Made by a program: the position numbers and the translations under genes. Below the pieces are notes generated by a model, which worked only from the letters and a program-made list of their open reading frames with translations, searched no databases and was not told where the DNA came from. This document shows positions 1,961 through 18,100 of a DNA stretch of 64,000 bases, in pieces. The number at the start of each line of letters is the position of its first letter. The stretch's first letter is position 1. Source of the DNA: Candidatus Heimdallarchaeota archaeon (GTDB taxonomy: Archaea; Asgardarchaeota; Heimdallarchaeia; Heimdallarchaeales; Heimdallarchaeaceae); NCBI GenBank assembly GCA_030603365.1, contig JAUVXV010000010.1, positions 79,925 through 143,924 on the forward strand, read 5' to 3'.

Positions 1961-3022
1961 ATGATGGAATACAATCAACCAGTAAGTTTTTCTGTAACAA
2001 AAAGAAACATAGCAGTATTAGATTTTGGGGTTACATCTCTCAAAATAGTCATTTTAGACCCAGTCCACCCAGAAGAGCCTTTACATTTCCAACGTATTTA
2101 TCTTCCCTTGAGAACTAAAAAAGAGGAAGTTGAAAGTGTCCTCAAAACTCTTCTACGTTCTTATTCTGATTATCATATTCGCAAATTCATAATTACTACT
2201 ACAAGTCCTCTATTTGCTTCTGCTCAGGAAACAGTTGAATATATTATTATGTCAGTGACTAAATTTATCCATCCAACAAACATCACATTATACACTCATG
2301 ATGAGAAGTTTGTTTCAATAAATGAAGCATTAGTCGATCCAACCAAGGTTGTTTCGGTAGGCTGGAAGGCGCTAGGAAAAGGATTATGGCATATGGTGAA
2401 AAAAGACGGATTAGTAGTTGATTTCTCTACCAGAACCACTAGCTTTATTCCTGTGAAAGATGGAAAAATTCTCTCTGAATCTCAGTCTGACTTCGAAAGG
2501 ATGAAAAGAGATGAGTTGATTTTCTTTGGTTTCTTGGAAACAAATGTGGCATTCATACAACCAAGATTCGAGTTTAATGGAGAAACATACAATCTTCCAT
2601 TTGAACCTCATGTAATAATGGCAGATATATTTCTTATCACAGGCGATTTGAAATCTAATGATTATGTAACTGATACTCCTGATAAAAAAGCAAAGTTTAG
2701 AGAAGATGCCTTAGATAGGTTGAAAAGAATGTTGTGCATAATAGACGATCATTTCAGTGAGAATGATTTAGTCAAAGTTGCACACATATTAAAAGTTCGA
2801 ATGTTAGAGAAGATTAATCAGATAATTAATAAGAAATTACAAGAACATAATCTTTCAAGGATTTTGATAACAGGTATTGGGTCAAATCTCCTCTATCAGT
2901 ATCTCTATGAGAAAAATGAATCAAGAGATATCATTAAAGTATCCGATATATTAAAAACTGCAGAGATTAATCCTTCTTACAGTTTAGCTTTCATATACGC
3001 AACAAAAAAAGATGATGAATAA
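1961..3022 (+). CDS. Divergent MfnF/hydantoinase-oxoprolinase (ASKHA actin-like fold) family protein
   Basis: LDFG..SLK, VDFSTRTTSFIPVKDGKI, SDFERM...ELIFFG, DY..DTPD, ITGIGS match the MfnF layout. Confidence 0.7.
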   Translation: MMEYNQPVSFSVTKRNIAVLDFGVTSLKIVILDPVHPEEPLHFQRIYLPLRTKKEEVESVLKTLLRSYSDYHIRKFIITTTSPLFASAQETVEYIIMSVTKFIHPTNITLYTHDEKFVSINEALVDPTKVVSVGWKALGKGLWHMVKKDGLVVDFSTRTTSFIPVKDGKILSESQSDFERMKRDELIFFGFLETNVAFIQPRFEFNGETYNLPFEPHVIMADIFLITGDLKSNDYVTDTPDKKAKFREDALDRLKRMLCIIDDHFSENDLVKVAHILKVRMLEKINQIINKKLQEHNLSRILITGIGSNLLYQYLYEKNESRDIIKVSDILKTAEINPSYSLAFIYATKKDDE

Positions 3023-4260
3023 TGGCTGAGAGAGCTGATTTGAGGAATAGAATCAATGTGATGTTATTTCACTTTGATCAAAGATTAGGTCCAAGGTTAC
3101 TGTTCAATGTTGCTGAGATTCAAGATACAAGAATAACAGCATCATTAACTCGACTAATGGATTTTAATTTCCTTGAAGAAATGAAAGCTATAGTTAATGC
3201 CATGGCCAATGTTGTATATTCAAGCATGTTCTTCTCCATTCCAAATCCTACAGCAAGAGGTGGAGTAGAGCAATTCATGCTTTCTTTTATAATTTTTGAT
3301 CCTACAATAACCGAATATCTAACAATCTCTTCTTTAGAAGAAGAAATGTCAAAGATAATAAGCAATCTAATTCTTCTCTCTGAAATGTTCATCATTATAA
3401 CCTACAGTAATCCAGTGCTTGAGGATTTTCCCGAGGTAGAAAATACACTAAAATCATTGAGAGATAATGCAATTAATGTTTTCCAAGACATCTTTTATGG
3501 GCAATTTGAGGGAACCAAGGATGCTATATCACAAATATTAGGTAAAATTGGTTTCGAAGCAGGTAAACAAATTGTACAAGAACTGCGGATAGATGATGAA
3601 GGTTCAGTGAAATCTTATACTGAGGCCCTAGTTAATTCACCAATTCTTACAAGATGGGGAAATATTAACATTCTTCATTTTGACCCGGGAGAAAAAGTAG
3701 CTACAATATCTTTAGATAGATCTATTTGGACAGAATCTCTTGGAGTAATTGCAACAAAAACCTGTGCATTCATTGAAGGAATGTTAGAAGCTATTTTCAG
3801 TAAAATTTTAGATGAACCAATCATCTGTGATGAGATGAGATGTGCCTCTGAGTATAGTTACGTTAAAGATTGTATATTTCAGATAGCTCCAGGAGGAGGA
3901 AGTAGGGAGATAATAGCTTATAGAGAAGATCAAACTATCAAAGAGATGGGAGTGCAAGAAAGAGAAAAAACTATGGAGTTAATCACTTCGGCTATTGGAG
4001 AACAATTCTACTATGAACTAGATCCCATGATAAGATTAATCCAATTGTTTAACAAAGCACCATTCATTTCTGACCATTTTATCCAAGAGTCAGAGGAAGA
4101 AGTAAAATTTCTAGTAGTTTGTAATTACTGGAGATATCCTAATGAAATAATGTGTAACAGCTGTGAAAAGTGGATAAGAAATTCAAGCAAATTTCCTGTT
4201 AAACTAGTTAAGAGTAAACATCGTATTTGTGAAATAACATATGAAACAGAGAGTCAATAG
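3022..4260 (+). CDS. Longin/uDENN-like N-terminal domain fused to V4R domain(s)
   Basis: FHFDQRLGP and ARGGVE motifs; V4R GFEAGK...WG...CAFIEG...C.E.RC...C.F. Confidence 0.65.
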   Translation: MAERADLRNRINVMLFHFDQRLGPRLLFNVAEIQDTRITASLTRLMDFNFLEEMKAIVNAMANVVYSSMFFSIPNPTARGGVEQFMLSFIIFDPTITEYLTISSLEEEMSKIISNLILLSEMFIIITYSNPVLEDFPEVENTLKSLRDNAINVFQDIFYGQFEGTKDAISQILGKIGFEAGKQIVQELRIDDEGSVKSYTEALVNSPILTRWGNINILHFDPGEKVATISLDRSIWTESLGVIATKTCAFIEGMLEAIFSKILDEPIICDEMRCASEYSYVKDCIFQIAPGGGSREIIAYREDQTIKEMGVQEREKTMELITSAIGEQFYYELDPMIRLIQLFNKAPFISDHFIQESEEEVKFLVVCNYWRYPNEIMCNSCEKWIRNSSKFPVKLVKSKHRICEITYETESQ

Positions 4261-6217: not shown

Positions 6218-7762
6218 ATGAGAAATCATCTTTCTATCATTTGCTTTATCCTTGTAATTTTAGCTCCATTTACTGGAACTGGATCAACTTTACAGCAAGC
6301 TAGTCCTACAATTGTCGATTATATCTATTGTAATAGTAATATTATAACAATTGATGATTCCAGCTCATTGTTTGAAGCTATTGCAATTAAAGATGGCATT
6401 ATAGTTGCCTTAGGTAGTAACGAAGAAATTCTATCAAATTATGAAGCAGAAAATAATCAATGCTATAATCTGGAAGGACGAACCATTATGCCTGGAATAA
6501 TCGATGGTCATACACACTATATGGCATCATTATTTTGGATTGGAGAAACAGAAACAATCTATGAATCTCAAATTTTAGCTTTAGCTAATGGCTATACAAC
6601 CTTAAATGAAAAAAGTATAGACATGGGTGAATTTCAATGGTTACAGGAAGCAGAACAAAGTAATACGCTTCGTCTTCGAGTAAACGCTTTTCTTATTTAC
6701 AATTATGCTTGGCTTGAAAATAATGAATCTGTATTAGTTGAACACTGGAATCCAGATTTAGAACCTCTACTAAATCATGACCGCAAGTTTCGTGTTCCTG
6801 GATTCAAAATCTATTTAGATGGAGCTTACGGACACCGAGGTTTTCCAGCAATGAGTGACCCTTATACACAGGAAATGATAGATTTATGGGGGATTATCAA
6901 TCCTTATGGAGATCTTTATTTTAATCAATCAGAATTAAATTCAGTAGTAGATTCTTTTCATGATAGAGGTTTTAGTGTAGCTGTTCACGCAATGGGTGAT
7001 AGAGCAACTGAAACAATCCTAAATTCTATAGAATATGCTTTGAATGGGACAGATAATGATAATGCACGACATCAGATTGAGCATAACAGCTTCATTAGAG
7101 AAGATCAAATCGCTAAAGCTTTATCACTTAATACTATTCATTCTGTTAGAGGCTACTTCCCAACTTATTGGCAGCAAGAATATGCTGATCTTTACAGTTC
7201 CATATGGATGGAAAGGACAGTAAACAGATACTCTCTGCCTGGAGAAGGACTTCATTCTTATCTAGAAACTGATTTTGGTTTTCTTCATGGTTATGATGAA
7301 GATAATTGGAGTAAATCAGCTAATATCAGACCTTTCCTACACTTATGGGGTTTGGTTACTAGAAAAGCAATTGATATTAATGGTACAATCCATGAACCTG
7401 ATCCTTGGGTTGCAGAACATGAAATTACAGTTGAACAAGCACTAAGAATGATGACCATAGAAGGAGCGTATGCAGTAAAACAAGAGGACTATATTGGTTC
7501 TTTGGAAGTTGGTAAATATGCAGATATAATAATTTTAACAGCTGATCCTCTAACAATTGATCCTGATGAGCTAAAAGATATTGAAGTTATGCTTACAATG
7601 GTAGAAGGAAAAATAGAATTCCAAATGGCAAGTCACTCATTCCCAATAACATGTGAGCTTTCAACACCAGGGACAGATACAACACCATGGACCATTCTCT
7701 TATCAATAACTGGAATATGTGTCATTGTTCTAATAACCACAAAAAAGATAAGAATAAAATAA
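6218..7762 (+). CDS. Secreted, C-terminally anchored amidohydrolase (Amidohydro_3/YtcJ-like)
   Basis: Signal peptide, PGIIDGHTH, K.YLDG, HAMGD, IEH, GSLEVGKYAD; C-terminal TM plus KKIRIK. Confidence 0.9.
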   Translation: MRNHLSIICFILVILAPFTGTGSTLQQASPTIVDYIYCNSNIITIDDSSSLFEAIAIKDGIIVALGSNEEILSNYEAENNQCYNLEGRTIMPGIIDGHTHYMASLFWIGETETIYESQILALANGYTTLNEKSIDMGEFQWLQEAEQSNTLRLRVNAFLIYNYAWLENNESVLVEHWNPDLEPLLNHDRKFRVPGFKIYLDGAYGHRGFPAMSDPYTQEMIDLWGIINPYGDLYFNQSELNSVVDSFHDRGFSVAVHAMGDRATETILNSIEYALNGTDNDNARHQIEHNSFIREDQIAKALSLNTIHSVRGYFPTYWQQEYADLYSSIWMERTVNRYSLPGEGLHSYLETDFGFLHGYDEDNWSKSANIRPFLHLWGLVTRKAIDINGTIHEPDPWVAEHEITVEQALRMMTIEGAYAVKQEDYIGSLEVGKYADIIILTADPLTIDPDELKDIEVMLTMVEGKIEFQMASHSFPITCELSTPGTDTTPWTILLSITGICVIVLITTKKIRIK

Positions 7763-7779
7763 AATGAAATGAAATAGGA

Positions 7780-7910
7780 TTAATTTAATCCTATAATGTC
7801 CCCATCTTCACTGTAGTCCATTCTATTAGCAGTTGGATTGAAGGGAATTAAGGGATTAAAACAAACTACAGTATACAGGAAAAAAGTACGAGCTCCAATG
7901 GTAGTCTCTT
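7780..7910 (-). pseudogene. fhs: Degenerate duplicate of the fhs 3' end (copy 1)
   Basis: Reverse strand reads PTANRMDYSEDGDIIGLN* versus fhs PAANRMDYTEDGNIIGLN*; DNA similarity fades out near 7900. Confidence 0.85.
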
Positions 7911-7978
7911 TCTTCTTTAGAATCTATAGGAGATTTATGAAAGACAACTATAAATAATACAAATGATATAATTTAGGT

Positions 7979-8350
7979 ATGTCTGAAGAGGAGATTAAAG
8001 AACTGGAAGAGTTCCTTTTACCATATGTTAATGACAGACTTGACAAGTGGTACATAGCTACTAAAATTGGAGAGTGTTTTATGTGGGTTGCTAGAGCCTT
8101 GATTAGATGTCTTCTAAATGTTACCGAGAAGATTCATTTGCATGAAATAACGTCGATTTCACTTTCTGAAGTTTATTTTATAGAAAAAATTAATATATTT
8201 CAGAATAAGGATGGTGCTATTTCCAGCTTTATGGAAATGGACCCACATAAAATTTCAGGAGAAATACACCAATGGATTATTCATCTTCAGGAAAATGGAA
8301 AACTCTCCGGAATATACGAAAGGCATACTGGATTTTATCGAAATAAATAG
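7979..8350 (+). CDS. Hypothetical protein, possible C-terminal winged-helix/PCI-like motif
   Basis: 123 aa ORF ending LQENGKLSGIYERHTGFY. Confidence 0.5.
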   Translation: MSEEEIKELEEFLLPYVNDRLDKWYIATKIGECFMWVARALIRCLLNVTEKIHLHEITSISLSEVYFIEKINIFQNKDGAISSFMEMDPHKISGEIHQWIIHLQENGKLSGIYERHTGFYRNK

Positions 8351-8351
8351 T

Positions 8352-8497
8352 TATGATAACTTTTGGGACATATATCAACTAAACCGCATCATGTTCATGA
8401 AAGAGGGAAAAAAGATGCAGTAGAAAGCGAGATGACAGGAAACTCTGATAACGACATACCTCTACTAATTGAAGTTTTGAAGATATTTCTAGTGTAA
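8352..8497 (+). pseudogene. Frameshifted remnant resembling DUF6516/TumE family
   Basis: YDNFWDI then, after a frameshift, STKPHHVHERG...DIPLLIEVLKIFLV*; similar to the [YW]DN...TxPHHxH motif. Confidence 0.4.
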
Positions 8498-8545
8498 AAA
8501 TGAGCATATTCTGTATGAAGAATTATGACATAGTAAAAGTTTGTT

Positions 8546-8597
8546 AAAAAAAAAGGGGTTTGCTCCAACTTCTGTTGGATTAGAACAGAGTGGAGTG
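8546..8597 (-). terminator. Hairpin plus U-tract after the 8619-9176 gene
   Basis: CTCCA..TCTGTT/AACAGA.TGGAG stem next to an A9 run on + (U-tract on -). Confidence 0.55.
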
Positions 8598-8618
8598 TGT
8601 TTCAAAGGTTATTTATGC

Positions 8619-9176
8619 TTAATAAGGCATAAAATAATTGTTCATAAAGGCTAAGTCTACTCCAGGAGTTACATAGTGTGCCATTCCTGGCATTGGTCCA
8701 CCGTCGAAGTTGAAGGCTGTTCTGGCTGTATGTTTGAGCCAAATAACTTTATCAGGATGTTCAGCTCCACCATCAACTGCTCTCATTTCATGTCTATGAA
8801 CATATCCCATACTGGCATATGCTTCAGCCTTTTCTGGACTCCATGTATCGATAATACCATGTACTATGAAAAGGAGTTCACCATCAGCTGCGTCAGAAGA
8901 CCACCATTGTGCCATTCCAAAAGGACCAGTGTTATAGTGTTTTCCAACGAACTGATTAGGTCCAGCTTGTACCCAGTAATGACCAGGAACATCGAATTCT
9001 CCATTAGGACCATCAGGCGCACCTGCCATGTAATAATCTATTCCATCAACATTGAAAACGATCCCATGTACAAAACCTTTAGCGTTTGCTGAGGTTGTTT
9101 CTGCAGATGCTAGTGCTGTTAAAGCAAAAATCGAAAGCATAAACAAACTCAGACCGATTGTTTTTGATTTATTCAT
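8619..9176 (-). CDS. Secreted His/Trp/Met-rich hypothetical protein
   Basis: Signal peptide; VPGHYW, KHYN, VHRHE, WLKH, MAHY motifs. Confidence 0.75.
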   Translation of the reverse strand: MNKSKTIGLSLFMLSIFALTALASAETTSANAKGFVHGIVFNVDGIDYYMAGAPDGPNGEFDVPGHYWVQAGPNQFVGKHYNTGPFGMAQWWSSDAADGELLFIVHGIIDTWSPEKAEAYASMGYVHRHEMRAVDGGAEHPDKVIWLKHTARTAFNFDGGPMPGMAHYVTPGVDLAFMNNYFMPY

Positions 9177-9195
9177 AATTCATCAAACCGTTAAG

Positions 9196-9217
9196 TGTTA
9201 CCAATATAATGGTAACA
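9196..9217. promoter_or_regulatory. Inverted-repeat operator TGTTACCA-N6-TGGTAACA
   Basis: Perfect 8-bp inverted repeat between a TATA-like element (about 9222) and the 9176 start. Confidence 0.55.
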
Positions 9218-9350
9218 TTACTTATAATTAAGTATCCAACTATAAATATATGTGGTTTAAACAAAAATAAACATATGATCAAAAAAACCAACTGCAAAAA
9301 AGATTATTGTAAGTTTAAATGTGTCAGTATAGATTGAAAATTCACTATAG

Positions 9351-9614
9351 TTGATTTATTTAACGCTAGGGGAACCAAAATATACGATGGGGGGGAAATA
9401 TTTGCTGTTAGTACAATTCAAATTAATACGACATTTATTTTACCATTTGATTTCGATGGTGTATATGAAAAAAATCGGAAGTGATTATGTTGGTTATTAT
9501 CATTATACGCTTAAAGTAACTGGAACAACTGAACCTACAGATTTTGGTTTCACAATAATAGGAGTAGTGATAGTCGTTATCTGGATTACTAAACATAGAA
9601 AAAAGAAAATATAA
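9351..9614 (+). pseudogene. Decayed surface-protein gene retaining only the C-terminal TM anchor
   Basis: Ends TGTTEPTDFGFTIIGVVIVVIWITKHRKKKI*; upstream part is broken by frameshifts and stops. Confidence 0.55.
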
Positions 9615-9637
9615 GAATGAATAAAAGTAGGGCTAGT

Positions 9638-9949
9638 TTAGTTTAACCCTATAATGTTTCTATCTTCAGTATAGTCCATTCTGTTAGCTGCTGGAACTGG
9701 AGGTAGTCCAGGCAGTAAGAACATGCTACCACAAATGGGAACGATAAAACGAGCACCAGTGTATAATCTGACCTCGTCAACATTAAGGGTCCAACCCTTG
9801 GGTGCACCCATGAGACCAATCTTGTCTGAAAGGTTGAGTTGAGTCTTAGCCATACAGAGAGGGAAGTCAGCAAAACCAAGCTTTTCGATGTAAGCAATAT
9901 CTTGGAGAGCTTGAGGTGAGCATTCTACGCCTTCAACACCATAGATTTT
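9638..9949 (-). pseudogene. fhs: Duplicate of the last ~104 codons of fhs (copy 2)
   Basis: Colinear with 12061-12372; 61 bp identical core (9705-9765 = 12128-12188); no 5' part of the gene. Confidence 0.95.
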
Positions 9950-9973
9950 TATTCGAAAAGGAGAAAGAAGCTT

Positions 9974-12052
9974 ATGAGAGGAACAACTAGAGCAATAATC
10001 ATGTTATTGATAGGGACCTCTTTGTTCAGTCCTTTGCTGATCGAATCAGATAATCAAAAAGATTTGAATTCATCTCCTTCTTCTCCTTTTCTTTTTTCTT
10101 ATTCTAGTGCAATAAATATCGATAATGATTCTGCTTTTATTACATATGGATTTCCAGGAAATGGAACTTTTAGTAATCCATTTAGAATTGAAAATCTGGA
10201 AATAATCTCAAACGAAACTTACTCGATTCGAATTCAAAATACTAATAGTTTCTTTATCATCACCAACTGTAAACTCAATTCAACATATAATGGTATTAAT
10301 TTGAAAAATCTTGCAAACAACACAGCAATTGTAGAAAACAATGTTTTTTCAAATTTTGATCAAGGAATTGGATTATATATAGAAAACTCTTCTTTTACCA
10401 AAATTATAGATAATCATTTCTCATACTCAAAGACAGCAATTATGACAAGACTAGATACAGATAATTGTACTATAATCAATAACTCCTTTGAGTATATATC
10501 AAGTGAATGCTTCTCGATACAAGAATCGGATAATTGTGTAATCATTAGTAATGAATGTTTAATTTCTAGTACCTTTCTGTACGCCTATTTTTGTGATTAT
10601 TTGACAGTTGTTAATAATTTCTGTGATGATACGCGACAATTCACTCATGTAAGTCACTCTCAAAATTGTAATATTTCTAGTAATACATGTTCAAATATTA
10701 CTGAAAATGGGATATATATTGGAGATACTGATTCATGCGATGTTTTATTCAATGAAATTAATGGAGGTTCAGCTGGTCTCAGAATTGTATCTTCATCAAA
10801 TGTAAATATTTGTTGTAATACAATTGAATACTGTAATATTGGATTGGGTTTACGAAAATCCAGAGAATGCTATATTAAAAAGAATAATTTTACTAAATGC
10901 GGCATTTCTATCGATGAAGTAGAAGAACCAGATATTGATACATGGATGTTAGAAGACAATCTAGTTAATGGTAAGTTACTCGGTTTTTATCGGCACAAAG
11001 GAACTAATTTCTTAATTGAAGAAGAATATGGACAACTAATCCTAGTGGATTGTTTCCAAGTGACAGTTAGAAATATAAAAATTGAAAACACTAGTATGGG
11101 GATAGGTTTATTTTATTGTGATTATTCAATTGTTGAAAACTGCACAATAAGTAATACAGTACAGAATTTTGTCCTCTATGAATCCTATTCATGTAATATT
11201 ACAACTAGTTACAGTTTTGCCTCTACTTACGGTCTAGTAGTCTCTCGTTCAGAAAATTGTTATGTTCTAGAAACAGAAATTTACAACAATGATTATGGGA
11301 TCCAAATTAGTCTATCAGAATATTGTTACATTAATAAGAATAATATCTTAGCAAATAATCACTATGGAATTGAACTCCATTTCTCTGATTACTGTGAGAT
11401 AACAGAAAATACAATCAAAGAGAACATAAAAGGCATTTACCTAAACTTTGTGAGTACAATATTAATTGGAAGTAATTACATATCACAAAATTATCCAAAT
11501 CCCGTTTACAATAATAATTCCGCAGGAATTTATTCAACTGCAGCACTTTGGGTCTCAATTAAACACAATTCTTTTACAGATAATGAAAAAGGAATATTGT
11601 TGTTGTTTAGTCATTATTTTATGATTTCAGATAATTGTTTTAGGAATAATAACTATGGTATTGTAGGGAAAGAAATTTTGGAAAGTGAAATCAAATACAA
11701 TTGGTTTGAAGAAAACAGCTTTTACGCCATTACTTTAAGTTCTATCTCTACAGGAAACATAATACATCATAATGCATTCATAAATAATAATAATGGTAAT
11801 GTTCAAGTTTTGGATGATGGATTTAATAACACTTGGTATAAAGTGGAAACAGAAGAAGGAAACTATTGGAGTGATTATCAAAAAACAGGAAATTATAGTA
11901 TAGATGGAATGGCAAATTCGTATGATCTCTATCCATTAATGGTAAATCCTTTAAGAAAGAGTTACTCGAGTTATTATGCGTTTTTTTCAATGATAATTTT
12001 GATTCCAGTAAGTGTTATAGCTTTGAAAAAATATAGAAAAAGAAAAGAGTAA
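9974..12052 (+). CDS. NosD/pectin-lyase-like beta-helix surface glycoprotein
   Basis: Signal anchor, GFPGNGT..NPFRIENL, many N.I..N..GI.L repeats, GNYWSDY...D.YPL, C-terminal TM plus KKYRKRKE. Confidence 0.9.
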   Translation: MRGTTRAIIMLLIGTSLFSPLLIESDNQKDLNSSPSSPFLFSYSSAINIDNDSAFITYGFPGNGTFSNPFRIENLEIISNETYSIRIQNTNSFFIITNCKLNSTYNGINLKNLANNTAIVENNVFSNFDQGIGLYIENSSFTKIIDNHFSYSKTAIMTRLDTDNCTIINNSFEYISSECFSIQESDNCVIISNECLISSTFLYAYFCDYLTVVNNFCDDTRQFTHVSHSQNCNISSNTCSNITENGIYIGDTDSCDVLFNEINGGSAGLRIVSSSNVNICCNTIEYCNIGLGLRKSRECYIKKNNFTKCGISIDEVEEPDIDTWMLEDNLVNGKLLGFYRHKGTNFLIEEEYGQLILVDCFQVTVRNIKIENTSMGIGLFYCDYSIVENCTISNTVQNFVLYESYSCNITTSYSFASTYGLVVSRSENCYVLETEIYNNDYGIQISLSEYCYINKNNILANNHYGIELHFSDYCEITENTIKENIKGIYLNFVSTILIGSNYISQNYPNPVYNNNSAGIYSTAALWVSIKHNSFTDNEKGILLLFSHYFMISDNCFRNNNYGIVGKEILESEIKYNWFEENSFYAITLSSISTGNIIHHNAFINNNNGNVQVLDDGFNNTWYKVETEEGNYWSDYQKTGNYSIDGMANSYDLYPLMVNPLRKSYSSYYAFFSMIILIPVSVIALKKYRKRKE

Positions 12053-12060
12053 AAGTAGGG

Positions 12061-13752
12061 TTAGTTTAACCCTATTATATTCCCATCTTCAGTGTAGTCC
12101 ATTCTGTTTGCTGCTGGAACTGGAGGGAGTCCAGGCAGTAAGAACATGCTACCACAAATGGGAACGATAAAACGAGCACCAGTGTATAGACGAACTTCAT
12201 CTACATTGAGAGTCCAACCTTTTGGAGCACCCATCAAACCAATCTTGTCAGATAGACTTAGTTGGGTTTTAGCCATACACATTGGAAAATCAGCGAAACC
12301 AAGTTTTTCGATGTAAGCTATATCTTGGAGAGCTTGTGGTGAGTATTCAACATCATCAGCACCGTAGATTTTGGTGGCGATTTTCTCGATTTTAACTTTA
12401 ATAGGATCAGAAAATTCGTAAGCAAATTTAACGTCACCAGTTCCTTTTTCGATAGCTTCTAAAACAGCTTCGGCAAGTTCTATACCACCTTCGCCACCTT
12501 TCATGAAAACTTCACTTTCAGCAGCAGTAACACCGAATTCAGAGCACTTGTCTTTAATCCATTTAATCTCTTCATCAGAATCAAAGGGGAAGCGGTTAAT
12601 AGCAACAACAGGGGGTATATTAAAGACATTAAGCATGTTATCAAGATGTTTTTCAACATTCTCGAAACCTTTAGCTAATTCATCCATATGAATATTTTTA
12701 GCTTCATCTAAATCTTTGATACCACCGTGGAGTTTGAGGGCACGAGCAGTAACAACAAGAACTACTGCGTTTGGTAAGGTATCATATTGACGAGCAACAA
12801 TATCGACAAATTTTTCGAAACCAAGGTCAGCTGCAAAACCACCTTCAGTGATGGTATAATCTGCAAGCTTGAGGGCAAGCTTTGTAGCAACGATAGAAGA
12901 GTTTCCGTGCGCCACGTTAGCAAATGGGCCTGCGTGTATGAACCCTGGTACTCCTTCAAAGTTTTGTACTAGGTTTGGTTTTATTGCATCTTTCAGTATT
13001 AGTGTCATTGCTCCTACTGCTTCAATATCCCTAGCGAAGACTGGCTTATCATCATAAGTGTATCCTAATAGAATACTTCCTAATCTTTCTTTCAGTTCTC
13101 CCACATCAGCTGATAGAGCTAAAATAGCCATAATTTCTGAAGCTGCTGTAATAACAAAGCCTGTGTTTCGGACATCACCACCCATTCTTCTTCCACCAAG
13201 TCCAGTAATGATATTTCTTAATGCTCTATCATTCATATCTATTGCTCTTGGCCAAGTTACTTTGGTTGGATCAATGTTACACTTATTTCCTTTTGTTAAG
13301 TGATTGTCAAGCAAAGCTGCTAGTAAATTATGAGCTGAAGTAATAGCATGTAAATCTCCTGTAAAGTGCAGATTTATGTCCCACATTGGAAAAACTTGCG
13401 AAAGATGACCTCCTGTTGCTCCTCCTTTTATTCCGAAAGTTGGACCCATACTTGGTTCTCTTAAGGCAAACATAACTTTCTTGCCTAATCTGTTAAACGC
13501 TTGAGAAAGACCTATTGTTGTAACAGTTTTACCTTCACCTGCTCTTGAAGCAGTCATAGCTGTTACAGCGATGAGTTTTCCATTAGGTTTATCGGATTTT
13601 AATATCTTTAGCATTGTTTGATAATTTATTTTTGCTACATATTTTCCGAATTGCTCGAGGTCATCTTCTTCCAGACCTACTTTTGCAGCAATTTCCCTAA
13701 TATTTTTCATATCTTTTTGCTTTTCTTGAGCAATTTCTATGTCAGTTTTCAT
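12061..13752 (-). CDS. fhs: Formate--tetrahydrofolate ligase
   Basis: MKTDIEIAQ start, GEGKT, LREPSMGPTFGIKGGATGG, INLHFTGD, HAGPFANVAHG, TEGGF; the ORF-track extension to 13935 is probably not translated. Confidence 0.97.
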   Translation of the reverse strand: MKTDIEIAQEKQKDMKNIREIAAKVGLEEDDLEQFGKYVAKINYQTMLKILKSDKPNGKLIAVTAMTASRAGEGKTVTTIGLSQAFNRLGKKVMFALREPSMGPTFGIKGGATGGHLSQVFPMWDINLHFTGDLHAITSAHNLLAALLDNHLTKGNKCNIDPTKVTWPRAIDMNDRALRNIITGLGGRRMGGDVRNTGFVITAASEIMAILALSADVGELKERLGSILLGYTYDDKPVFARDIEAVGAMTLILKDAIKPNLVQNFEGVPGFIHAGPFANVAHGNSSIVATKLALKLADYTITEGGFAADLGFEKFVDIVARQYDTLPNAVVLVVTARALKLHGGIKDLDEAKNIHMDELAKGFENVEKHLDNMLNVFNIPPVVAINRFPFDSDEEIKWIKDKCSEFGVTAAESEVFMKGGEGGIELAEAVLEAIEKGTGDVKFAYEFSDPIKVKIEKIATKIYGADDVEYSPQALQDIAYIEKLGFADFPMCMAKTQLSLSDKIGLMGAPKGWTLNVDEVRLYTGARFIVPICGSMFLLPGLPPVPAANRMDYTEDGNIIGLN

Positions 13753-13953: not shown

Positions 13954-14937
13954 ATGCAATGTGAACATCCCCAGTGCAATACTGAAGCAGATATTTTATT
14001 CTACTGTCGATTCTGTAGAGGGTCCTTTTGTCAGAATCATAGAGATGCTCATACTCATAACTGCCCCTCGCTCAGTCAACCAAGTCAGTCAACACAAGGG
14101 GCCCAACCAGGTGCACCTCAGGGTCAAGTTAGAGCAGCGGAAGTTATGCGAAAAATAGCTTATGGTGTTGCTCAAGCTGCTCAACAAGCTGCTCAACAAC
14201 AAGCTCAGGCTCAGCAACCTATGCACTTTCCCGATGAGAAGAGTAAGAAGGACTTTATTGCAAAAAGACTTACTTCTTCAGGTGAGCTATTTTCTTTAGG
14301 AAATGAGGTATTAGACATACTTTTTGGTTTTACATTAATAGTTCTTGTTTTTGGTTTTTTCCAATATATCAGAGCTACAGAGAATAGATGGTGGGGTTTT
14401 GCTATTGCTGCAATATTAGTAGGTACCGCTTTCTTACCTCACGAATTAGCTCATAAATTTGTAGCCATCAGAAAAGGACAGTTTGCTCGATATATTCTAT
14501 GGGTTAAAGGAATGTTGTTTACAATGCTCACGTTAGTTTTAGGAATTGGACTAATTGTCCCAGGTTTTGTAGCAATAGTTCCTATGAGTCGTCAAATGAA
14601 CAAAAAAGACATAGGCTTGGTTTCATTTGCGGGACCAGCAATAAATGCAGTAATAGGATTTGTTAGTCTAATTATCGGTTTCTTAACTTATAGTGGCTAT
14701 GCTGTTGGATTCGCAGGTCCTCTAGCTCTTTATGGTCTTTTTGGTGTTCCTAACATTTTCATCCTTGTTGCGCAGTTTAATGGTATTATTGCTTTATTCA
14801 ACTGTATACCTGTTTGGCAATTAGATGGTAAGAAAATCCTTAGTTGGAATAAAATGGCTTATTTTATACTTGTAGCAATCAATCTTGCAATTGTTATTCC
14901 TACATTTATCCTAAATCCAGGTTTCCTATCAGGGTAA
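13954..14937 (+). CDS. AN1-type zinc finger fused to M50 (site-2) intramembrane metalloprotease
   Basis: C..C...C..C...FC..HR...H.C; HELAH, AGPAIN, NCIP...LDG. Confidence 0.9.
   Translation: MQCEHPQCNTEADILFYCRFCRGSFCQNHRDAHTHNCPSLSQPSQSTQGAQPGAPQGQVRAAEVMRKIAYGVAQAAQQAAQQQAQAQQPMHFPDEKSKKDFIAKRLTSSGELFSLGNEVLDILFGFTLIVLVFGFFQYIRATENRWWGFAIAAILVGTAFLPHELAHKFVAIRKGQFARYILWVKGMLFTMLTLVLGIGLIVPGFVAIVPMSRQMNKKDIGLVSFAGPAINAVIGFVSLIIGFLTYSGYAVGFAGPLALYGLFGVPNIFILVAQFNGIIALFNCIPVWQLDGKKILSWNKMAYFILVAINLAIVIPTFILNPGFLSG
14170..14217 (+). repeat. Imperfect GCTCAA/GCTCAACAA tandem repeat encoding an A/Q linker
   Basis: Direct inspection; encodes AQAAQQAAQQQAQAQQ. Confidence 0.7.
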
Positions 14938-16549: not shown

Positions 16550-17485
16550 ATGTCGAATTTTTTTCCTATAATCATGATACGATTTTCAGAGATAGCAATA
16601 AAAGGTGCAAAAACACGAAAATGGTTTACAGACCGTTTAGTCTCTCACATAGACTTCTTATTGAAAGCTCATGAAGTCTTAGAGTATCAAGTAATAAAGG
16701 AATATAGTAGAGTTTTCGTAAAATCCAATGAAACTAAGAAGGTAGAGGAAGTAATTACAGCTCTTACTCCAGGAGCAGTAAGCACAAGTGAAGTATTCCA
16801 GTGTTCGTCCAAAATAGAAGACATACAACTATGTGTAAAAGAGAAATTTTTTACTAAATTCAAGAAGAATTCCACTTTTGCAGTTCAAGCAAAAAGAACA
16901 GGAAAACATCCTTATTCAAGTGTGGAACTTGGTGCAAAAATTGGAGAATTTATTTTGGATAATAATGAAGAAAAGGGATTGAAAGTAGACCTTACCACTC
17001 CAGAATATAAACTTAAGATAGAAGTAAGAGATGACAAAGCTTACGTTTTTGATACAATTAATAGAGGATTAGGAGGATTACCTGTTGGTAGTCAAGGGAA
17101 AGTTCTAGTTTTAATCTCTGGTGAGAGAGAGGATATCTCAAATATAATTCAGCTCTATAAAAGAGGAGCAGTTACTCAAATCTACTCCTTGCAGAAAAAT
17201 TCGGAAATGAATCATGAATTCAAAGAATCTATTACTCGAATCCTGAATTTTCAACCTCAATTGAGTCTTGAAGAAAAAGAAATTTACTATGTAGAGCACG
17301 AATTTGATGTGAAGCATCTATTGCATTACTATACTAAGAATGAATGTTTAGGCTTAGCGGTATCTAAGGCAGTTTTTAATAAATTAACAAATGAGCTTCC
17401 TGTATCATTACCTATATTTGTTCCTCATCTTGTTACCGAAATAGATGAAGAGGAAATATCTAAAATATTAGCAACCATTCTCTAG
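16550..17485 (+). CDS. ThiI-like THUMP-domain protein with degenerate PP-loop domain
   Basis: IRFSEIAIKG, TFAVQAKRTGKH, VDLTTP, GLGGLPVGSQGKVLVLISG; SGGIDS replaced by SGERED. Confidence 0.8.
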   Translation: MSNFFPIIMIRFSEIAIKGAKTRKWFTDRLVSHIDFLLKAHEVLEYQVIKEYSRVFVKSNETKKVEEVITALTPGAVSTSEVFQCSSKIEDIQLCVKEKFFTKFKKNSTFAVQAKRTGKHPYSSVELGAKIGEFILDNNEEKGLKVDLTTPEYKLKIEVRDDKAYVFDTINRGLGGLPVGSQGKVLVLISGEREDISNIIQLYKRGAVTQIYSLQKNSEMNHEFKESITRILNFQPQLSLEEKEIYYVEHEFDVKHLLHYYTKNECLGLAVSKAVFNKLTNELPVSLPIFVPHLVTEIDEEEISKILATIL

Positions 17486-18100
17486 TTCTTGTCTAACTAC
17501 TGAACCATTTGGTTCTTGTTCTGAAAACACTATTCCTTGGAATTTTTCAACAGATAATTTGTTGTTTTTCCATTCATCCATAGGTAGGTAAGCTTTTCTG
17601 CATGTATTAGAAAGGAATTCTTCAGTATTCCATCCTTGTTCAACAGGAACTTGAGGCAATAACAATCCTTGATTTGGACCAAGTTTTACAATAAGTCCAT
17701 CACCAGGAACTGTAATTTGGCTAAGCAATTCTTGTGGAGAGGAATATTCTATTTTTTGAGGAGGAGTCATAACTGTTACTTCAAAGATTAACTCAGCTAA
17801 TTCGTGTTTCTTCACTGGCTGAAATCGAGGATCATTTAAAGTTGATGTCTTAGCTAGTTCAATAACCTCTTTGTAAAGGGGGTCTATACCAATAGGATAA
17901 CCAATACATCCTCGAAGAAGATGTTCTGAGCCCTTAATAGCTTTAACTGTTACAAATACCCCTGTTACAAGTTTGGTCTGTTCAGGTATTGGTTTTAATG
18001 GTTGAGGAGTCTTATCTTCTCTAATCCAAATTTCTGCAGCATGGCGTGCTAATTTTACTAAATAAGATCCTGTCTCATCCTCGATTTTCATCAATAACAC
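17468..18100 (-). CDS. AMMECR1 domain protein
   Basis: GVFVT, LRGCIG, DPRF, GLLLPQV. Confidence 0.95.
   Translation of the reverse strand: MLLMKIEDETGSYLVKLARHAAEIWIREDKTPQPLKPIPEQTKLVTGVFVTVKAIKGSEHLLRGCIGYPIGIDPLYKEVIELAKTSTLNDPRFQPVKKHELAELIFEVTVMTPPQKIEYSSPQELLSQITVPGDGLIVKLGPNQGLLLPQVPVEQGWNTEEFLSNTCRKAYLPMDEWKNNKLSVEKFQGIVFSEQEPNGSVVRQELENGC

Follow-up and report, generated by a model that had tools for sequence, protein, structure and literature searches.

A variable genomic island at fhs in a Heimdallarchaeota genome and its probable growth by serial 3'-end displacement

Why should a housekeeping gene be followed by two further copies of its own 3' end, with unrelated genes in between? 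This question is raised by fhs, the gene for formate-tetrahydrofolate ligase, in a 64,000-nucleotide stretch (the whole of which is called the window here) of a Candidatus Heimdallarchaeota archaeon genome (contig JAUVXV010000010.1 of assembly GCA_030603365.1), a metagenome-assembled genome (MAG) of 3.65 Mb in 17 contigs. An earlier note on the sequence had described the locus as an integron-like array of surface-protein gene cassettes, stacked at a housekeeping gene by repeated single-crossover integration. We followed up this description by comparing the window with the rest of its genome (G000; other G labels denote genomes of same-genus species, and C labels denote contigs), with the 25 species genomes of the genus, about 19 of which bear fhs, and with metagenome contigs. 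Overall, it appears probable that positions 6218-12060 are a variable genomic island which grew by serial displacement of the fhs 3' end, through a process based on homologous recombination and with no integrase gene in or beside the island.

Displaced fhs ends and their origin

Alignment and a whole-genome search confirmed that three fhs 3' ends, at 7780, 9638, and 12061, are each met by a convergent gene with a basic tail, as the earlier note had reported (Table 1; fhs positions below are counted along the intact gene, nt 1-1692). Two of these, copies B and C, are partial ends that lie downstream of the intact gene on the same strand with cargo genes in between, and no fhs copy beyond the intact gene, B, and C was found in the whole 3.65-Mb assembly. 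Copy B comprises 312 nt that are 84-86% identical to the intact end (E=4e-105 in the whole-genome search), with similarity continuing for about 40 nt beyond the stop codon; it has neither a stop nor a frameshift, and its ratio of nonsynonymous to synonymous divergence (dN/dS) against the intact end is 0.05 at a synonymous divergence (dS) of 0.83. Copy C (approximately 7780-7869; E=3.6e-13) is 74% identical and has indels, one stop, and a dN/dS of 0.24-0.32. The increase of decay with distance from the intact gene that had been noted earlier was thus borne out, and it gives the order of events: the outermost end is the oldest.

The same place is occupied by differing arrays in related species. 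Across the genus, a backbone is kept with a HExxH-motif membrane protein gene and fhs on one side and TPR, V4R, and hydantoinase-like genes on the other side, while the stretch between these conserved flanks ranges in length from about 0.1 kb to over 12 kb. Partial fhs 3' ends were detected in nine of the approximately 19 fhs-bearing species (G000, G006, G007, G009, G010, G012, G013, G016, and G020), where they lie downstream of fhs or, in some relatives, on contigs that break at fhs, with different cargo, and they were also present on independent metagenome contigs. The comparison across relatives and metagenomes that had been suggested as a check therefore revealed variable arrays with repeated fhs tails, and the locus is not fixed. 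In all arrays fhs is intact, with a 3' half of foreign type, and the intact protein of G000 is 87-96% identical to the fhs products of 14 same-genus species. In the closed genome of Heimdallarchaeum endolithica, a member of another genus, no fhs tail lies less than 10 kb from the gene, and the feature is therefore not general to the phylum.

Most tails in the relatives had a dN/dS of 0.04-0.10 at a dS of 0.3-1.4, compared with a median dN/dS of 0.063 between intact fhs genes; the oldest tails (copy C, G006_f2, and G013c61_f1) had values of 0.2-0.3 and contained stops. Because the differences are almost purely synonymous, the tails are the ends of once-functional alleles at species-level divergence, not decayed local duplicates. 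Several of them are closer to the intact fhs of another species than to that of their own genome. For example, the G012 tail (G012_f1) is 96-99% identical to the intact gene of G013 over nt 1111-1692, and a G013 tail (G013c19_f1) is 92-96% identical to the intact gene of G012, with these two pairs supported at 99/98 and 92/81, respectively, in a maximum-likelihood tree. Similarly, G010 and G013 pair at 100/99 in a tree of the 5' part (nt 1-825) but fall into different major clades in the 3' tree. Judged by their sequences, the intact fhs genes are mosaics. These foreign-allele tails and mosaic intact genes uphold the proposal that units of an fhs 3' end plus cargo were inserted repeatedly, with fhs restored each time and older ends pushed outward.

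Divergence at fhs also departs from that of its surroundings. Over nt 361-825, G000 differs from G004, G008, G010, G012, and G013 by a dS of only 0.11-0.25, whereas the flanking backbone genes have a dS above 2; in the close species G008, G010, G012, and G013 the relation is inverted, with a dS of about 0.2 for the flanks and of 0.76-1.3 for the fhs 3' half. This contrast between fhs and its flanks identifies fhs as a focus of cross-species exchange. The recently homogenised block of fhs stops exactly at nt 826, a junction that recurs below.

Nor is the pattern confined to fhs. A self-comparison of the G000 genome revealed the layout of gene, cargo, and tail, or of gene, cargo, tail, cargo, and tail, at at least five other genes (Table 1), so that fhs does stand as a housekeeping-gene anchor, in line with the earlier note, but is not a unique one. 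The tails of the fumarase, aminotransferase, M28 peptidase, and 386-aa genes are mostly 81-87% identical to their anchor gene, with a dN/dS of 0.05-0.09 for the first tail, and those of the beta-propeller gene have a dN/dS of about 0.28-0.30. The cargo at these five arrays often consists of surface proteins with a membrane anchor and a basic tail. Other species hold partial fumarase and aminotransferase copies as well, with near-coincident starts (227/229 and 379/380, respectively).

Exchange points and the mechanism of growth

Where the foreign ends were joined can be located closely in several cases. Between G010 and G013, whose whole 5' parts are near-identical, only four differences occur over nt 700-824, while from nt 825 onward differences appear at every third position, and many other pairs of intact genes switch at the same nt 825/826 border. 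In six tails, whose upstream flanks are unrelated, the fhs sequence begins at nt 826-832, at the first codons of the conserved PFANIAHG motif. In fhs, CCNTTYGCNAAYATHGC is the site on which a site-specific recombinase or nuclease would act. Two metagenome contigs, one with an intact fhs (L146) and one in which a tail follows at least 10 kb of cargo (L147), are 100% identical over 2795 nt rightward from fhs nt 828, including 1.9 kb of downstream genes, and are unrelated leftward. At this junction, identity between the L146/L147 allele and the allele that replaced it in a G016-type genome is limited to about 8 nt (CCTTTCGC). Since the exchange took place precisely where the displaced tail begins on its left, a crossover inside the duplicated segment is ruled out for the nt-826 events; a plain Campbell crossover of this kind was rejected for them because the L147 tail is a single allele at 100% identity from nt 828. 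A second coincidence of exchange point and tail edge occurs near nt 1111-1120 in G013. Other tails start at nt 1120, 1381 (copy B of the window), 1451, 1484, 1589, and 1622, and the fhs segments measure 90-867 nt where duplicated and 60-867 nt where replaced.

In the window itself, copy B and the intact gene share a perfect block of 61 nt, their longest identical run (permutation P = 0.0005-0.0015), at which other alleles differ at 2-14 positions. General conservation does not explain this block, which marks the footprint of a crossover or of later gene conversion between the tandem copies. Campbell recombination is therefore possible for copy B, and the single crossover invoked by the earlier note (P ~0.001 for the block) fits that copy, but not the best-resolved events at nt 826-832 with their identity of about 8 nt.

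These observations establish that foreign units, each with an fhs end, its terminator, and the genes behind it, were added one after another at fhs, that older ends were shifted outward, that DNA crossed between species, and that the tandem copies recombined later. For the process as a whole, we propose the following course. Donor DNA from related Heimdallarchaeota would bring the distal part of an fhs allele, its terminator, and whatever genes lie downstream, and would be joined into the resident fhs such that the gene is whole again with a foreign end, while the resident end and everything behind it shift outward as an orphan tail. At least two such events occurred here: the NosD block is the newest, the segment 7870-9637 is older, and the amidohydrolase gene lies behind the oldest tail. 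On the left side, the cell's homologous recombination would act in the conserved part of fhs; on the right side, a break in the resident gene would be joined by a non-homologous or microhomology step, and insertions that leave the gene whole would be those that survive. Orphan tails would later decay or be deleted, and later recombination between tandem copies, as at the 61-nt block, would reshuffle or delete blocks. This combination of a homologous-recombination anchor with non-homologous or microhomology joining at the far end, which is akin to homology-facilitated illegitimate recombination or to insertion with long target duplication, is the most likely mechanism. Housekeeping genes may serve as anchors because only conserved genes would offer enough identity between species so diverged.

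The searches for recombination genes are in line with such a process. No integrase was found by Pfam among the open reading frames (ORFs) of the window between 1961 and 13935, and no Pfam integrase, transposase, or replication domain was detected in some 60 cargo proteins drawn from the window, from 10 relatives, and from two metagenome contigs. The single match to PF00589 (Phage_integrase) in G000 is on another contig (C11), and the absence of an integrase from the array thus stands as first noted. PF00589 was not found in seven of 10 genus genomes (G006, G007, G008, G010, G012, G013, and G016), which are 81-92% complete, so that absence is not proven. No XerA-type match was obtained in these seven genomes either, which would be unusual for archaea if real and may reflect search sensitivity.

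Several observations weigh against this reading. In six cargo contexts that are unrelated to one another, the tail begins at nt 826-832, which is also where the intact genes have their exchange point, and the partners have only about 8 nt of identity there; such precision is as expected of a site-specific recombinase or nuclease, and general recombination does not obviously predict it. Small serine recombinases (PF00239) are present at three to five per genome, none of them on fhs contigs, and could act in trans. The low-divergence block to the left of the junction at fhs was not found at fumarase in G000, and the anchor idea is therefore not shown to be general. Finally, every dataset used is a metagenome assembly. 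Owing to the nt-826 precision, a recombinase acting in trans and a site-specific nuclease both stay alive as rivals.

Of these two, tandem site-specific integration fares better, and we regard it as rather unlikely. Elements with an fhs 3' segment as attP would have integrated by means of a recombinase encoded elsewhere or lost, the orphan tails would be attR sites, and the shorter tails would result from deletion. This explanation accounts for the exact junction that recurs at nt 826-832 in six contexts, with the exchange point at the tail start and a core of about 8 nt; incoming DNA restores the fhs 3' end, as a target-restoring integrative element does; stacking with older elements outward is typical of re-used att sites (10.1101/2020.12.28.424599; Krupovic 2019, PMC6563490); and serine recombinases occur in every genome checked. 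However, no recombinase was found in about 20 cargo blocks (more than 10 genomes and seven metagenome contigs), searches of most genomes of the genus gave no tyrosine recombinase, the cargo has no mobile-element hallmark, and the viral contigs scanned contained no fhs 3' half. In addition, the 867-nt replaced segment far exceeds known att sites, tails also start at many other positions (1120, 1381, 1451, 1484, and 1589), and several specificities would have to be assumed to explain the scar at no fewer than five other genes.

More doubtful is capture triggered by a nuclease, in the manner of homing endonucleases or mORF elements, in which a cut at the PFANIAHG-coding site would be repaired from a foreign allele, copying its 3' end and neighbouring genes, with the old end rejoined behind. 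This would account for the position of the exact junction in a highly conserved motif, for the low-divergence block on its left that resembles gene conversion, and for the missing integrase, and fungal mitochondrial mORF elements leave the same picture (PMC3630166). Yet no endonuclease gene was recognisable by Pfam or NCBIfam in the fhs arrays of the window and relatives, where uncharacterised ORFs may still encode a novel nuclease; the sole nuclease-type match among the cargo is a type II restriction enzyme, found in a single relative. The ESM Atlas had no match for two uncharacterised cargo proteins that recur in relatives, one of 523 aa (G016 and G012) and one of 562 aa (G010 and G013); a 421-aa zinc-ribbon protein recurs as well. 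The cargo is large and ordinary.

An assembly artefact, in which strain variants of one locus were chained by the assembler, is highly improbable. G000 is a MAG and several relatives' contigs break at or inside fhs, but identity between the copies of the window is only 74-86%, they are separated by 1.9-2.4 kb and differ in length, with unique cargo, the assembly has only 17 contigs, and similar arrays lie inside contigs of at least nine MAGs from different studies and on separate metagenome contigs. Least credible of all, local tandem duplication of the fhs end with neutral decay and no foreign DNA would yield direct repeats that decay with distance, but was rejected because a decaying copy would drift towards a dN/dS of 1, unlike copy B and most tails, and because tails cluster with other species' intact genes and the cargo between copies is unrelated.

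Growth by homologous recombination at fhs, with joining of the far end by other means, hence remains our preferred reading. A wider version of it is tentative: Heimdallarchaeota might possess a general, recombinase-free mode of gene capture that uses conserved housekeeping genes as cross-species landing pads, and at fhs a putative site-directed nuclease or recombinase acting at the PFANIAHG-coding site (nt 826) might make the 3' half a travelling handle for accessory genes.

Relation to known systems

We found no description of this locus or of this mode in the literature on Asgard archaea. The kind of pattern is known from bacteria and organelles, and what is new here is the host and the setting. 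The locus resembles the C-terminal displacement arrays of Rhs, CdiA, and type VI secretion system (T6SS) effectors with their immunity genes (Jackson et al. 2009, PMC2935791; Kirchberger et al. 2017, PMC5361080), whose proposed mechanisms are homologous recombination through circular intermediates and, alternatively, homology-facilitated illegitimate recombination. As in those arrays, a constant 5' part meets, at a sharp border in a conserved motif (here nt 825/826), an exchangeable 3' part that travels with downstream genes, and the incumbent end is displaced, which leaves an integrase-free string of orphan 3' pieces with the older ones further out. Unlike those toxins and immunity genes, the fhs 3' parts all encode the same half of the FTHFS enzyme under purifying selection (dN/dS 0.06), and whereas 3' variety is the point of the bacterial systems, the payload at fhs is unrelated downstream cargo (surface, transport, and enzyme genes). 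Moreover, Rhs orphans retain a piece of the conserved core while nt-826 fhs tails retain none, and the host here is an Asgard archaeon with a housekeeping gene as the anchor.

A further comparable class is insertion with long target duplication (Nobusato et al. 2000, after Furuta et al. 2010, PMC2853133). It was recognised by genome comparison from gene blocks that lack any mobility gene and have tens to hundreds of base pairs of the target repeated on both sides, and the fhs inserts likewise are flanked by target repeats of more than 30 bp with no mobility gene found. The described cases concern bacterial restriction-modification genes in single events with near-identical repeats, and no archaeal example passed that screen; at fhs, in contrast, the repeats are stacked, reach 867 nt, and consist of foreign and native alleles that have diverged, with diverse cargo. 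In the C-terminal duplications of fungal mORF elements (Allomyces atp6; Glomus atp6, atp9, cox2, and nad3; PMC3630166), a foreign in-frame C-terminus replaces the native one, whose copy persists downstream (unexpressed in the mORF case), and the differences are largely synonymous, as at fhs. Those inserts carry a LAGLIDADG or GIY-YIG endonuclease, which brings about the event, and little else, whereas no endonuclease was found in the fhs arrays.

Integrase-borne elements accrete in tandem at the 3' ends of tRNA and protein genes in the tycheposon islands of Prochlorococcus (10.1101/2020.12.28.424599) and the thaumarchaeal iMGEs (PMC6563490). There, too, the incoming element restores the target 3' end, and re-use of the site pushes older elements inward and leaves partial target copies. 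However, tyrosine recombinases or their remnants lie in or beside those arrays, with att sites of 13-70 bp, while none were found in the fhs arrays, where the replaced segments measure 60-867 nt. A further case of accretion at a gene 3' end is that of e14 and phage 21 at icd of Escherichia coli. With integrons, the locus shares addition at one end of the array and the movement of older cassettes away from the anchor. Unlike in an integron, its cargo lies in both orientations with its own signals, the repeat between cassettes is the fhs coding end plus terminator, and no IntI, attI, or attC was found, so that the term integron-like, applied to the locus at first, holds as an analogy only.

The locus provides a concrete view, at the level of sequence, of the passage of accessory genes from species to species in Heimdall-group Asgard archaea, a lineage placed near eukaryotes, apparently without the usual mobile-element machinery. 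It also acts as a natural recorder, in which ordered orphan tails date successive imports and the linked 3' allele identifies the donor lineage. The dS of fhs, at least ten-fold below the genome background between distant species and several-fold above it between close ones, gives a measure of how strongly gene flow is concentrated at anchors. The recurrence of the gene-cargo-tail scar at several genes suggests that this may be an under-reported, general mode of island growth, and the exact nt-826 junction is a testable handle on the enzyme involved.

Cargo, terminator, and other loci

The features of the window and the other arrays of G000 are listed in Table 1. The fhs frame stays open to 13935, 61 codons 5' of the conserved start; as the frames of relatives comprise 567 aa, the true start is probably at 13752 or 13764.

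Table 1. Features of the fhs island and its flanks (window positions) and further arrays in G000 (contig positions)
Feature	Position	Strand	Description
Intact fhs (formate-tetrahydrofolate ligase)	12061-13752	-	563 codons + stop; Pfam FTHFS E=2.8e-235
Displaced fhs end B	9598-9949	-	9638-9949 = fhs nt 1381-1692 (codons 461-563 + stop); 9598-9637 = post-stop tail
Displaced fhs end C (oldest)	7741-7869	-	7780-7869 ~ fhs nt 1589-1692, decayed; then post-stop tail
61-nt perfect block, B/intact	9705-9765 = 12128-12188	-	longest identical run
Hairpin across fhs stop (12056-12074) + T-rich tract	12025-12074	-	terminator-like, part of repeated unit
Cargo 1 (newest): NosD/right-handed beta-helix surface protein	9974-12052	+	692 aa, C-terminal membrane anchor + basic tail; Pfam NosD E=2e-47, Beta_helix E=4e-36
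87-aa ORF	9351-9614	+	membrane anchor + KHRKKKI tail; convergent on copy B
Cargo 2, 185-aa ORF	8619-9176	-	hydrophobic N-terminus, signal-peptide-like by eye; single copy in genome
Cargo 2, 123-aa ORF (ORF123)	7979-8350	+	small paralogous family; paralogues on C15 and C2 at 32-34% identity
Distal cargo: amidohydrolase	6218-7762	+	514 aa, membrane anchor + KKIRIK tail; Pfam Amidohydro_3 E=4e-39
Distal flank: V4R-domain protein	3022-4260	+	conserved; hydantoinase-like 1961-3022 beyond
Proximal flank: membrane protein with HExxH motif (HELAH, by eye)	13954-14937	+	M50/site-2-peptidase-like by eye; divergent from fhs
386-aa gene, family unassigned (L138)	C16:92000-108000		two tails
M28 peptidase (L139)	C12:32000-47000		two tails; cargo includes another NosD protein
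Beta-propeller surface protein (L140)	C15:37000-50000		one downstream tail + weaker copy upstream of gene
Aminotransferase (L141)	C15:352000-364000		cargo = 989-aa LVIVD surface protein
Fumarase alpha subunit (L142)	C3:43000-52000		about 40 kb before window

The repeated unit extends past the coding end, since about 25-35 nt 3' of the stop are common to nearly all intact and partial fhs copies. In the window, hairpins span the stop codons at 12056-12074, 9633-9658, and 7775-7793, and across about 30 copies of the genus the hairpin arms co-vary by compensatory changes (GGG/CCC, GGA/TCC, and GGT/ACC); in copy C the hairpin is retained via a compensatory GGA/TCC change. Together with the T-rich tract, the hairpin probably serves both fhs and the convergent cargo gene as a terminator. 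The stops of the convergent plus-strand ORFs lie 8 nt (intact gene), 23 nt (B), and 17 nt (C) from the respective fhs stops, and at its C-terminus each of the three has a hydrophobic segment followed by a K/R tail. Part of this tail is read from the T-rich tract of the repeated fhs unit in reverse complement; the KKYRKRKE tail of the NosD gene, for instance, comes from the reverse complement of the tract that follows fhs. Homologous NosD cargo with the same tail is present 3' of fhs copies in G020, G010, and G013, and an ending in ...KRKRKE was found on a NosD protein in G000 and G020 and on an amidohydrolase-family protein in G023.

Among the remaining ORFs of the island, the 87-aa ORF, the 185-aa ORF, and ORF123 gave no family match in Pfam and NCBIfam. 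The 87-aa ORF also has no homologue among the cargo of relatives, and it may be a remnant of a surface-protein gene. For a paralogue of ORF123 at C2:42889-43324, 85 nt of its 3' end are repeated with 86% identity at C2:47543-47627, 4.3 kb further downstream, as one more small duplication of a tail. Homologues of the amidohydrolase occur in the islands of G020 (contig C69) and G023 and in the metagenome locus L146. As for the flanks, the V4R and hydantoinase-like genes follow in the same order beyond the island in nine relatives, and the gene of the HExxH membrane protein adjoins fhs in 12 loci.

The cargo of relatives includes surface proteins (NosD beta-helix and caspase/C13-like proteins), ABC and P-type transporters, a TRASH regulator, O-methyltransferase, beta-lactamase-like, SBP_bac_5, MarR, and PNPOx proteins, the TdeIII restriction enzyme, and HEAT, TPR, and zinc-ribbon proteins, with genes on both strands. 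Because the cargo is so diverse, the island is not specific to surface proteins. The idea of surface-protein cassettes thus holds only in part: approximately half of the genes abutting an fhs end have the form of a membrane anchor plus basic tail, but transporters, enzymes, and regulators are cargo as well.

Some further repeats were seen in these genomes. In G003, two full-length fumarase alpha copies lie 2.6 kb apart (C76:13583-14461 and 17108-17986), one of them with an in-frame TAG. In G000, a sequence of 60-66 nt occurs at least seven times over 16 kb at C1:620747-636981, with 88-97% identity. On contig C7 of the same genome, a 576-aa frame is preceded, at a distance of 4 kb, by a 343-nt copy (89% identical) of its own 5' end (113538-113880 and 117548-117889), and this copy may be a 5'-end counterpart of the 3'-tail scars.

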